This document shows positions 9,865 to 34,153 of a stretch of 64,000 nt of DNA, in pieces. Origin of the DNA: an uncultured Mycoplasmatota bacterium (lineage in GTDB: Bacteria > Bacillota_I > Bacilli_A > RF39 > UBA660); assembly GCA_947574255.1 (NCBI GenBank), contig CANPJT010000001.1, positions 4,554 to 68,553 on the forward strand. Reading direction: 5' to 3'. The translations under genes were made by a program, and so were the position numbers. Every line of letters starts with the position of its first letter. Within the stretch, counting starts at the first letter, position 1. Below the pieces are notes generated by a model, which saw only the letters and a list, made by a program, of their open reading frames with translations, made no database searches and had not been told where the DNA came from.

Positions 9865-9938
9865 TGGAGGGCCTAGTCGGATTTGAACCAACGATCAGGG
9901 AGTTGCAGTCCCACGCCTTACCACTTGGCTATAGACCC
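9865..9938 (-). tRNA. tRNA-Cys (anticodon GCA)
   Basis: Reverse complement GGGTCTATAGCCAAGTGGTAAGGCGTGGGACTGCAACTCCC...GGTTCAAATCCGACTAGGCCCTCCA: 7-bp acceptor stem, D-loop AGCCAAGTGGTAAGG, anticodon loop CTGCAAC, T-loop GGTTCAAATCC, CCA encoded. Confidence 0.85.
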
Positions 9939-31090: not shown

Positions 31091-31173
31091 TAATCATCAC
31101 CATTTATAAAAATAATACTAACATATAAAAAATAAAAACTCAATTAGCTAAACTAATTAAGTTTTATCGTTTA

Positions 31174-32367
31174 TTAATTAACTTTTAATTTAATAGGTGA
31201 AGCACTTGTGCCTGTTCCTCCATTTTCTATTCCTATATCCGATTTTAAATATATTGATGGCCGAATGGCATATGTAGTAGTAGTTCCTGTTTTTCCAACC
31301 TTTCCACTCGATCCTACATATAAAACTTGGTACCCATTAAGAGAGGTTGGTGTTATCGTCCATTGGGTACTACTATTATACAACCAGTCATTGTTCTTAC
31401 AATCACTTACTCCACTTCCATTCCATGTACCTAAACTTGTATGTATACATGTATCTCTATTTGTTTTACTCCCGCCATTAGTAGCATATCCATATTCTGA
31501 TGGATACATTAAACCAACATGGCCTGTCCATTTTACGGGATTATTATTATATGAATAATTTCCTTTTTCATAACCAGACAAATATGTAAGTTCAGTTAAA
31601 CTATTAGGTATTCCACCGATACTCCATACGACTTCACTTATCATATTCTTAGCATCATTTGTTAATCCAGTATCACTAAAATCACATGATTTTGTTGCTC
31701 CATTACTTCCACTTGGGCAATCTCCGCTTGTTCTATTATAATATGCGCCTTCATTTAATACTTTCTGAAGTTCACTATCCGTCCAATTATTACTTCCTTC
31801 AATACTTGTTGATGATCCTGTTCCATCTGGTTTGTTATCCCATGCATAACTTCCGATACTTTCACTTCTTATTAGTTTAACTTTATCACTCTTAGTTCCA
31901 TCGGGATTTTCGATACCTTTCATTACTCCTATTATTCGCCATAACTCTCCATTAAATTGCACATAATTATTTGGATTTGCTCCTATATATCTTAATTCGC
32001 CAGATACATCTTTTACTATTTCATTAGAATAGTTAGACATCATTTTTACATAATCTATTAGTGTTCCTTCATATGTAAAATCAATATTACAACTTATTTC
32101 ATTATTATTATTTGAGTTTATATTTACTAGTCCCCATAAATCATTGCTCCATTCTGCTGTTACTCCATTTTCACATGTTACATTATTTGTACTTGATTTT
32201 AATCCACTTTCCTTTGTAGGGAAACTATCCTTTACTTTTATTCCATTAATTGTATAAGCTATTTCGTTTGTTTGTTTTATCTTCTTTATTTTGCTATAGT
32301 TATCCTCATATAAGTTATCTTTCTTATATAAGACTACTATACCCCCCCCAGTAGTGCTACTGCACAT
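31174..32367 (-). CDS. Secreted G/S/T/N-rich surface protein. As sequenced, its signal-peptide start codon is out of frame because of a G8 tract (phase-variable or frameshifted).
   Basis: Long ORF begins MCSSTTGGG. Upstream ATG (32423..32421, RBS AGAGGG) encodes MRLKNFKKNQKLKRTLLALCAVALLGGV*, a typical signal peptide that stops just after the G8 run. A run of G9 or G6 would fuse it in frame to a 415-aa preprotein. Confidence 0.6.
   Translation of the reverse strand: MCSSTTGGGIVVLYKKDNLYEDNYSKIKKIKQTNEIAYTINGIKVKDSFPTKESGLKSSTNNVTCENGVTAEWSNDLWGLVNINSNNNNEISCNIDFTYEGTLIDYVKMMSNYSNEIVKDVSGELRYIGANPNNYVQFNGELWRIIGVMKGIENPDGTKSDKVKLIRSESIGSYAWDNKPDGTGSSTSIEGSNNWTDSELQKVLNEGAYYNRTSGDCPSGSNGATKSCDFSDTGLTNDAKNMISEVVWSIGGIPNSLTELTYLSGYEKGNYSYNNNPVKWTGHVGLMYPSEYGYATNGGSKTNRDTCIHTSLGTWNGSGVSDCKNNDWLYNSSTQWTITPTSLNGYQVLYVGSSGKVGKTGTTTTYAIRPSIYLKSDIGIENGGTGTSASPIKLKVN
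32342..32349. repeat. G8/C8 homopolymeric tract at the signal-peptide/mature-protein junction
   Basis: tatACCCCCCCCAgtag on the plus strand. G/C 8-mers are rare in a genome of about 27% GC. Confidence 0.9.
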
Positions 32368-32515
32368 AGAGCTAGGAGGGTTCTCTTTAATTTTTGATTT
32401 TTCTTAAAATTTTTTAATCTCATTTTTATCCCTCTTTCTATTATTTAGATTATATCATTTATCTTTTTATTTAACAATTAAAAAACTAGGAACTTTATTA
32501 TCCTAGTAGCAAAAA

Positions 32516-33274
32516 TTATCTTTTTCTAGATATTACACTAAATTTTTCTTCTAAAATTTCCATACATGCATCCGCATATTCACAAGCACCTTTTATTTCA
32601 TACCATTTTAACCAACCATTATAAGTTCCAAAAACATTTCTGTAATCTATCTCATCAGTATATTGATAATAATCTAAAATATCTTTTAAAAGAAAGGCTT
32701 GAGCTTCGATAGATTTATATGGATCATATCGTAAATCATCAGATGTAAAACCTAAATTTTCTTCTATATATTTATGATTTATTTCATTAATTTGAGTTAA
32801 TCCATAATCATTTGTAGATGAGATAATCCCATTTGTATGCCATCTTCCCCCTGATTCTCTTTCAATTATTACCATTATTATTTCAAATGGAACATTATAT
32901 TTTTCACTTATTTGAAAGATATAATCTTGCATTTCTTCAGAACAAGCGAAATCATAATATATAGTTTGTTTTTCTTCAACTATATTTTCAGTTTGCTCTA
33001 TTGGAGTCAAACATTTTAATAATTCCGCTGCAATACCCGCACATCCTTTATATGGCTTTATATCTTGTAGTGTTTTTTTCATATTTATATCTGCTAATAC
33101 TTTTGATGGTTCTTCATTTAATGTATCCATAACATTTTCTTTAACATTTAAAGCTTTTATATCTTTTTCTTCATTATTCATACTCATAACACGAGCTGTC
33201 ATACTTAAAGTATATAAATATAATAATAAATATTTTTTTTGCTTATAAAAAATTTTTTCTTTTTTATTAGACAT
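32516..33274 (-). CDS. Lytic transglycosylase (SLT domain) protein, secreted
   Basis: ERESGG...NDYGLTQIN matches the SLT catalytic region. Hydrophobic N-terminus. Confidence 0.65.
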   Translation of the reverse strand: MSNKKEKIFYKQKKYLLLYLYTLSMTARVMSMNNEEKDIKALNVKENVMDTLNEEPSKVLADINMKKTLQDIKPYKGCAGIAAELLKCLTPIEQTENIVEEKQTIYYDFACSEEMQDYIFQISEKYNVPFEIIMVIIERESGGRWHTNGIISSTNDYGLTQINEINHKYIEENLGFTSDDLRYDPYKSIEAQAFLLKDILDYYQYTDEIDYRNVFGTYNGWLKWYEIKGACEYADACMEILEEKFSVISRKR

Positions 33275-33373: not shown

Positions 33374-34153
33374 TTAAGCAAAAACTATATCTTTTTTTAA
33401 TCTTAAATTATCTGCAAGTGTTGCAATAAATTCAGAATTAGTTGGCTTACTACGGTCATAATCAACACTATGGCCAAATAATTCTTCCATTAAATCGTAA
33501 TCTCCTCTAGACCAGCTAACTTCAATAGCGTGTCTTATTGCTCTTTCAACACGTGAAGCTGTTGTATCAAAGCGAATGGCTATTTCAGGGTATATTGATT
33601 TTGTTATCCCACCTATCATATCAGGATTTTCATACATCATGTATACACTTTCTCTTATATATTGATATCCTTTAATGTGAGAAGGTATTCCTAAAGAATG
33701 CAATAATTTACTTATTTCTAATTCTACTTTGTTACTTTTTTGCTCTTTTTCTTCAGGTGAATTTATAATTTGTAAAATTCTTTTTTCTAAAACATTATTA
33801 TCTATTGGTTTTATCATATAATAATCAACATCAAATTGACTTACCATCTTAATTGTTGTTTCTTTTTTATAACTTGTTAAAACAATTACATTCTTATTAA
33901 TATTTTGTTTTTTCATTTCTTCCAAAATACTAATACCATCAATTTCTGGCATTATAATATCCATCAGAATTAGATCAAATTCTTTGTTATGATTAATAAT
34001 ATAATCTAGTCCTTCTTTCCCATTATTAATTGCTTTAACTATATTGATTACTGCGTGACTACTAAAATACTCCTTTGCGTTGTTTATAACTGATTTATTA
34101 TCATCAATTACAAGAACATTTATACTTGTTTTCATATTTTCTCCCTTTTTCAT
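33374..34153 (-). CDS. spo0A: Sporulation master regulator Spo0A
   Basis: Receiver domain (VLVIDDN...DLILMDIIMP) plus the Spo0A-specific C-terminal domain (HIKGYQYIRESV...ITKSIYPEIA...TASRVERAIRHAIEVSW). Confidence 0.85.
   Translation of the reverse strand: MKKGENMKTSINVLVIDDNKSVINNAKEYFSSHAVINIVKAINNGKEGLDYIINHNKEFDLILMDIIMPEIDGISILEEMKKQNINKNVIVLTSYKKETTIKMVSQFDVDYYMIKPIDNNVLEKRILQIINSPEEKEQKSNKVELEISKLLHSLGIPSHIKGYQYIRESVYMMYENPDMIGGITKSIYPEIAIRFDTTASRVERAIRHAIEVSWSRGDYDLMEELFGHSVDYDRSKPTNSEFIATLADNLRLKKDIVFA

Follow-up and report, generated by a model that had tools for sequence, protein, structure and literature searches.

A putative surface-protein gene in an uncultured gut bacterium is probably a slipped-strand phase-variable locus, sequenced in its OFF state. 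The gene lies on the minus strand of a 64,000-nt stretch of an uncultured Mycoplasmatota genome (GCA_947574255.1, contig CANPJT010000001.1, positions 4,554 to 68,553), which we call the window throughout. A run of eight G residues (G8; 32342..32349 minus, C8 on the plus strand) parts a short leader from a long gene body in another reading frame. Changing the run by a single unit toggles the product: G8 yields a 28-aa leader followed by a stop, and G9 yields a 416-aa protein like those of in-frame homologs. The tract matches in position the poly-G runs of homologous genes that we fetched from related gut metagenome-assembled genomes (MAGs) and metagenome assemblies, whose loci and proteins carry the labels L### and P####.

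The DNA itself displays the parts of a translational switch. A sequence-only reading of the window had described an ATG at 32423 behind a Shine-Dalgarno (SD) sequence, the G8 run, a stop after the run and a 397-aa open reading frame (ORF) in another frame, and every one of these coordinates was confirmed. The SD, GAGGG (32430..32434 minus), stands 6 nt from the ATG (32423..32421). From there a leader ORF of 28 codons plus TAG (32337..32423 minus) encodes MRLKNFKKNQKLKRTLLALCAVALLGGV, comprising a charged n-region and most of a signal-anchor hydrophobic core; its stop, TAG at 32339..32337, begins 2 nt past the G8 run. The 397-codon ORF (31174..32367) crosses the run in a different frame (..TTGGGIVVLYKK..). 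Past the tract, 389 codons plus a stop (31174..32341 minus) complete the hydrophobic segment and encode two domains, one beta and one DUF6273/C-type-lectin-like, with no internal stops or frameshifts. Lengths of G6, G9 and G12 put leader and body in one frame (ON), and G8 does not (OFF). The sequence-only reading had predicted a 415-aa product from either G9 or G6; both lengths do fuse the two parts, and 415 aa is right for G6 (two fewer), whereas G9 (one G more) gives 416 aa.

Signals for expression flank the gene. Upstream lies a promoter-like TTGTTA-17 nt-TATAAT (TGATATAAT, 32449..32477 minus; 10 of 12 matches), with a TG before the -10 box that makes it an extended -10 site. It presumably acts as the promoter; a promoter scan of the window overall found no enrichment above shuffles. 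Downstream, 13 nt 3' of the stop codon, an AT-rich hairpin picked out by eye, CTTAATTAG..CTAATTGAG, is followed by a T-run (31127..31161 minus) and may be a terminator. The terminator scan, which demands at least 3 G-C pairs, did not report it. Searches of the window by tblastn and blastn with the protein and its 5' cassette found this single copy of the gene only.

The G8 run is strongly atypical of this genome, beyond what chance would give. The earlier claim that G/C 8-mers are highly unexpected at about 27% GC holds: window GC is 26.5%, and two runs were observed against an expectation of 0.02-0.08. An independent, identically distributed (i.i.d.) model predicts 0.022 G/C runs of at least 8 per window. 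Dinucleotide-preserving shuffles averaged 0.08, and one of 100 produced two. No G/C runs of 6 or 7 occur in the window, and the two of 8 (32342..32349 and 9385..9392) are both G on the minus strand. Nor is GGG a favored codon, accounting for 6.6% of Gly codons across the 53 long ORFs of the window; the remaining seven Gly-Gly-Gly tripeptides in long ORFs use GGT, GGA or GGC only. Because such runs are rare and GGG codons scarce, we conclude that the tract did not arise by chance. It has the traits typical of slippage switches: a length of at least about 7, a place near the 5' end of its gene and over-representation relative to composition.

Homologs carry poly-G at the identical codon position, in different lengths. 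Among the candidates scored, 4876 homologs of the fused protein were found in gut metagenomes at E <= 1e-3. Ten homologous genes have the run at the same Leu-Gly-Gly-Gly codons, with lengths of 8, 9, 10 and 11 that cover all three frames, so that conserved position and variable length, as expected of a phase-variable locus, occur together. The closest full-length homologs read ..LGGGIVVLYKK.. (P0002), ..LGGGIIAYKR.. (P0003) and ..LGGGLVAYKS.. (P0049), and the LGGGI junction of the in-frame homologs is exactly that predicted for a G9 fusion of the window gene. In the closest in-frame homolog, TATAGTAGT comes after G9, and the window gene shares this stretch. Many other close matches are 318-342 aa long and start at internal Met or Val codons; in their DNA, the gene calls begin 3' of an out-of-frame poly-G.

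Both states of the switch occur among these loci. Two are ON with no other lesion: L001 at G9, and L002 at G10, where a T-to-G change at the tract edge keeps the frame. OFF copies that are intact otherwise include, besides the window gene at G8, L084, L085, L086/L087, L088 and L093 at G10, and L003 and L095 at G11. Further OFF copies combine an out-of-frame tract with a second lesion, namely an in-frame TAG in L004, L090 and L091 (all G10) and an additional T insertion in L094 (G8). One paralog, L021, is tract-less, with GGA GTA GGA (Gly-Val-Gly) at the same site, and the protein therefore does not need the poly-G.

One homolog, located upstream of dnaE in a related species, is polymorphic in tract length at a single locus. 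In the mouse-gut assembly ERZ28659971 (L092), its tract is G9 and in frame (ON), and the gene call gives 398 aa (P0121). The same homolog has G10, and is OFF, in ERZ941151, GCA_948479395, ERZ27255241/GCA_949737775 and GCA_949416165 (L084, L085, L086 and L088). The flanks of the G9 and G10 alleles are identical over ~230 nt. With this polymorphism, and with same-codon tracts of 8-11 in ON and OFF frames, the ON/OFF translational switch proposed by the sequence-only reading is supported. That reading had named tract-less orthologues and an absence of length heterogeneity as findings that would count against it; in the relatives, the orthologues have the tract and its length varies.

The G8 call could instead be a homopolymer miscall, the true length being G9 and the gene intact, an explanation we regard as improbable. 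The G9 of the closest in-frame homolog, preceding an identical stretch, speaks for such an error. Long G runs are error-prone, and every related sequence comes from short-read data (MAG or metagenome contigs), with coverage as low as 2-9x in some. Against this, the same out-of-frame G10 recurs for the dnaE-upstream homolog in four assemblies, of which three or more are independent, and consensus calls at poly-G tracts are therefore reproducible. Lengths of 8, 9, 10 and 11 are all found across the family. Moreover, a miscall accounts for the OFF state only, and leaves unexplained why a genome of 26.5% GC would keep a G-run at this codon.

Several observations weigh against a phase-variable window gene, and the first concern the tract. 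The G9/G10 polymorphism was seen in the related-species homolog and not in the window gene itself. Exact-protein look-ups with the 397-aa product and with the adjacent gpmI product returned no second assembly of the window locus, and the protein cluster containing the window gene (P0001) has a single member. The agreement of four assemblies on G10 for the dnaE-upstream homolog also means that consensus lengths can be stable. Two further searches bear on the sampling of this locus. A look-up with S10 found one 2.3-kb contig, which stops before reaching the window gene, and the cassette pattern gave 0 matches in a scan of Joint Genome Institute (JGI) metagenomes, sources that lack this species, the same pattern matching 11 of the fetched loci.

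The remaining counter-evidence concerns decay, a live alternative in which the tract frameshift has permanently inactivated one of several redundant paralogs, whose switch has fallen out of use. Of the ten homologs with the tract, three (L004, L090 and L094) bear an additional nonsense or frameshift lesion, and some of the family is therefore undergoing decay and not switching. The window copy keeps 113 of 123 family-conserved residues (92%) against a family median of 99%, the fifth lowest of 72. Proteins P0049 and P0051 are truncated downstream. The affected paralogs (L004, L090/L091, L094, P0049 and P0051), whose lesions are an in-frame TAG, a 1-nt insertion or a frameshift further downstream, are either pseudogenised or low-coverage assembly errors. 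For the window gene itself we think decay unlikely. It has 389 codons open after the tract and 24 before it, where stops would be expected about once per 10 random codons (calculated from base counts). All 46 invariant family positions are kept, and promoter, SD and leader are conserved as well as in the in-frame paralogs. A single +1 slippage would restore the frame.

Constitutive recoding would offer another route to the full-length protein. In this scenario the out-of-frame gene is expressed at some level through -1 ribosomal frameshifting on the G run, aided by a neighboring hairpin, or through RNA-polymerase slippage on the run, which we judge very improbable. Runs of G codons can in principle be slippery, and the majority of family copies are out-of-frame in assemblies. 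A stable RNA hairpin also sits at the 3' end of the tract (32294..32343 minus; minimum free energy -16.7 kcal/mol, z = -4.4). At -1 frameshift sites, the downstream structure usually lies 5-9 nt away; this hairpin begins 0-1 nt past the run. It is neither conserved nor covarying among paralogs, which share only a 7-bp AUAUAAG/CUUAUAU core, and we rejected it as a family feature. The shift that recoding would have to supply is not conserved either, with homolog offsets of 0, +1 and -1. With these offsets and a window-specific hairpin, the candidate programmed -1 frameshift site was discarded. The hairpin is built of near-palindromic CTTATATAAG ... CTTATATGAG (Leu-Tyr-Lys and Leu-Tyr-Glu codons) and probably arises as a side effect of the Tyr-Lys...Leu-Tyr codons. 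Polymerase slippage could coexist with DNA switching as leakiness.

Slipped-strand switching would operate at this gene as follows. Expression would be constitutive, from the extended -10 promoter, with a strong SD directing translation from the ATG at 32423 into a leader whose poly-G encodes Gly-Gly-Gly within the signal-anchor hydrophobic core. Replication slippage would add or remove single G's. With G9 (or G6 or G12), leader and body would be read as one ~416-aa protein, anchored in the membrane or secreted, whose ligand-binding domain is of DUF6273/C-type-lectin-like type. With G8, G10 or G11, translation would end a few codons past the run and leave a leader peptide of 28-32 aa only. Across a multi-copy family in different ON/OFF states, a clonal population would display varied subsets of surface lectin-like proteins. 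The model presumes a high and reversible slippage rate in this organism and a surface-exposed product, and the resulting variation may serve immune, phage or niche adaptation.

The fused protein resembles a signal-anchored ligand- or glycan-binding surface protein, a reasonable inference from its N-terminus and modelled fold. Seven of its first 14 residues are K or R, followed by a 19-residue hydrophobic, uncharged stretch, TLLALCAVALLGGGIVVLY, and then KKD. An AlphaFold (AF2) model built on 72 homologs reached a pLDDT of 80 and a pTM of 0.80; it predicts residues 11-22 to be helical, and confidence stays low through residue 55. The modelled layout is a small beta domain (~57-118) and an alpha/beta DUF6273/C-type-lectin-like domain (~125-416). 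Together these features make the secreted or surface location proposed by the sequence-only reading plausible. SipW-dependent-type signal peptides follow their hydrophobic core with (T/S)-(F/Y)-A-x-(F/Y); after the GGG, the paralogs read RSYALYKE (by eye) and the window protein reads VLYKKDNLYE. The L-A-L-C of the window protein could be read as a lipobox (L-[AS]-[GA]-C); we rejected this lipoprotein reading because, on inspection, the Cys is not conserved and homologs carry Gly there (LLALGAIAIL etc.).

Structure comparisons relate the modelled domain to DUF6273. The sole significant Foldseek match in the PDB was the Thomasclavelia ramosa IgA peptidase 9qa6 (E = 4.4e-8, probability 1.00, 305 columns); weaker PDB matches were C-type lectins and the C-terminal domain of Legionella Lcl. 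In a phage structure library, the top matches were DUF6273 proteins (E 5e-8 to 1e-4) and receptor-binding proteins. We regard the protein as a distant relative of DUF6273, since TM-scores of the fold matches are modest (0.3-0.4). At the sequence level, the Pfam DUF6273 score fell just short of the gathering threshold (22.0 vs 23.5 bits, E = 1.6e-4, residues 182-394), and 14 of the 72 family members match DUF6273 at E <= 0.01. A profile search of the PDB returned no match, and NCBIfam gave none for the fused protein or P0051, including the SipW-type TIGR04088.

On sequence comparison, the family shares a promoter, leader and poly-G cassette. Paralogs are 82% identical in nucleotides over the promoter and SD block and 84% over the leader (79-83% for the window leader against those of paralogs), which exceeds both the gene body (69-76%) and the region further upstream (62%). 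AGAGGGA, from the SD block, is kept in every paralog cassette. Chromosomal positions are unrelated, with paralogs scattered beside housekeeping genes such as rny/rnj, eno, miaB, dnaE and rpoB and the window copy beside gpmI. At least 14 family loci occur in a single mouse-gut MAG, MGBC109233. Many of its contigs (e.g., L005, L006 and L012) end or start in the conserved N-terminal segment, ~50-60 nt past the tract position. These breaks are consistent with a multi-copy repeat, so family size and the ON/OFF census are underestimated. The fetched loci come from MAGs labelled uncultured Bacilli or Tenericutes, Candidatus Ventrenecus or Clostridium sp. CAG:451, and Spo0A, ribosomal proteins and glycolytic enzymes are among the products encoded in the window.

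Poly-G tracts extend beyond this sub-family and beyond coding sequence. In distant family members (38-47% identity), G8-G11 runs precede the ATG by ~45-110 nt and occupy the promoter or 5' leader (L020 2447..2456, L043 2447..2457, L051 1653..1661, L061 1652..1659, L067 1830..1838 and L080 1814..1822). Some of these fall between TTGACA and TGnTATAAT, with spacers of 20-22 nt. The same promoter layout recurs ~700-1750 nt upstream of a family gene at the unrelated L042 (G12, 724..735) and L048 (G10, 1767..1776), which have no family gene close by. The tract edges of L020 and L043 differ through a G/T substitution, with no indel. Related MAGs of chicken, rabbit and human origin also contain unrelated genes for putative secreted or membrane proteins with G9-G10 just past the start codon or within the signal peptide, most of them out-of-frame (L037 3439..3447, L030 113..121, L038 2488..2497, L047 85..94 and L068 4802..4811). 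These sequences suggest a lineage-wide set of poly-G contingency loci. Across the surveyed loci and the window excerpt, all 26 of 26 G/C runs of at least 7 are G on the sense strand, a bias explained in part by strong GC skew.

Strand composition of the window is itself skewed. ORFs of at least 120 aa lie nearly all on the minus strand, and the plus strand has an excess of C (10110 C vs 6845 G), the minus strand being 15.8% G and 10.7% C. By this ORF bias and skew, the window lies on one replichore, and its G-rich strand carries the genes as well as both G-runs. The second G8 (9385..9392 minus) lies in a ~770-nt non-coding stretch from a tRNA gene (9868..9938) to a SUFU-domain gene (8169..8798), and downstream of it are TATAAAAT and an AT-rich hairpin with a T-run. 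The surrounding region, 8799..9600, has no homology to the lectin-like family protein or to the fetched family loci. This run could be a promoter-type tract or a remnant.

The neighborhood of the switch gene interrupts a familiar gene order. The genes tpiA and gpmI normally belong to a contiguous glycolytic gene cluster; here the switch gene, a Spo0A gene (33374..34153 minus; Response_reg and Spo0A_C, E = 5e-41) and an SLT-domain transglycosylase gene (32516..33274 minus) intervene between them. Elsewhere in the window, 4491..6695 (minus) encodes a 734-aa protein composed nearly entirely of D-x-D/N-G-D-G-x-P-D calcium-binding-like repeats. It adjoins 6789..7448 (minus), which encodes a 219-aa TasA-like protein with a weakly matching TIGR04088 TasA/SipW-type signal peptide (E = 0.0077) and a weak pilin-D1-like match. 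The two may form a surface-fibre module.

Taken across the lineage, a broader proposal is conceivable, and we advance it tentatively, at somewhat less than even odds. An uncultured low-GC gut Bacilli lineage, represented in mouse, chicken, rabbit and human assemblies, may run a Campylobacter-style, genome-wide poly-G contingency system whose main client is the DUF6273/C-type-lectin-like family, with at least 14 loci per genome. Copies would be switched through the portable translational cassette or through promoter poly-G, giving combinatorial surface variation like that of mycoplasmas. The mechanism is classical; novelty lies in the lineage, in the protein family and in tracts that occupy either coding sequence or promoter within one family. 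A literature search found no description of this protein family or lineage.

Slipped-strand switches are textbook in Campylobacter, Neisseria, Haemophilus and Mycoplasma and little documented in uncultured gut commensals. If our reading is right, MAG annotations of this lineage systematically mis-call such genes as N-terminally truncated, signal-less proteins, as with the database entries of 397, 342, 340, 333 and 324 aa that begin at internal codons. The family would then serve as a marker by which metagenomic reads directly reveal ON/OFF population dynamics, such as responses to IgA, phage or diet. A further suggestion is that DUF6273 takes part in host or glycan binding beyond phages and IgA peptidases. 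Should the genome-wide system prove true, it would be a form of combinatorial surface variation not described before in this group.

The nearest parallel to the tracts is Campylobacter jejuni, where poly-G/C tracts have a modal length of 9 and measured switching is high at G8-G11 (PMC3401435). Strain NCTC11168 has 29 poly-G/C tracts of at least 7, including G8 in cj1139 and G9 in cj0031 (PMC3401435, PMC4965091). Both genomes combine low GC with rare long G/C homopolymers of ~8-11, the mode lying near 9-10. In both, intragenic tracts frameshift surface-related genes ON or OFF, and loci are found in differing states. The hosts differ, Campylobacterota there and an uncultured low-GC Bacilli lineage here. 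So does the arrangement: C. jejuni tracts occupy assorted positions in unrelated genes, whereas here one codon is fixed within a signal-peptide cassette common to a paralog family.

That arrangement recalls the Neisseria opa genes. About 11 Opa paralogs, each with its own constitutive promoter, switch independently through CTCTT repeats, and the hydrophobic core tolerates three-nucleotide changes. Shared with the present family are a scattered, multi-copy set of adhesin-like surface proteins and a repeat within the leader-peptide coding region (PMC3960869). The opa repeat unit is five nucleotides long, that of the present family a single G. Opa proteins are outer-membrane beta-barrels; the product here is a predicted signal-anchored DUF6273/C-type-lectin-like protein in a lineage of Gram-positive type.

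Promoter-spacer homopolymers form a second class of known switch, exemplified by Mycoplasma hyorhinis vlp (poly-A), Treponema pallidum tpr (poly-G) and N. meningitidis porA/opc. The distant family members with upstream poly-G resemble these, and their 20-22 nt spacers are not obviously optimal in any assembly. The switch proposed for the window gene differs in being translational rather than transcriptional.

Slippage switches have also been reported from the human microbiota, in the poly-G of a Bifidobacterium breve pilus gene (PMC9187656) and the poly-C of Gardnerella nanH3 (bioRxiv 10.1101/2020.09.16.300947). As proposed for the window gene, a 5' G/C homopolymer in a gene for a surface structure determines through replication slippage whether a full-length or a truncated product is made. 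Those are single loci in high-GC Actinobacteria, whereas the present cassette is family-wide in a background of 26.5% GC.

At the protein level, the comparison is with DUF6273. This domain, with a C-type-lectin-like core, forms the N-terminal domain of the IgA peptidase and is targeted by diversity-generating retroelements (DGRs) in phage receptor-binding proteins (PMC12237041, PMC12402451, PMC10743442). The likeness of the window protein to the IgA peptidase and to these phage 'tentaclin' proteins consists of the fold matches to 9qa6 and to many phage DUF6273 proteins and of the sub-threshold Pfam score. Unlike them, it has neither an M64 peptidase domain nor a phage context. Tentaclins vary through DGR hypermutation of a loop, whereas variation in the present family would come from switching paralogs ON and OFF.

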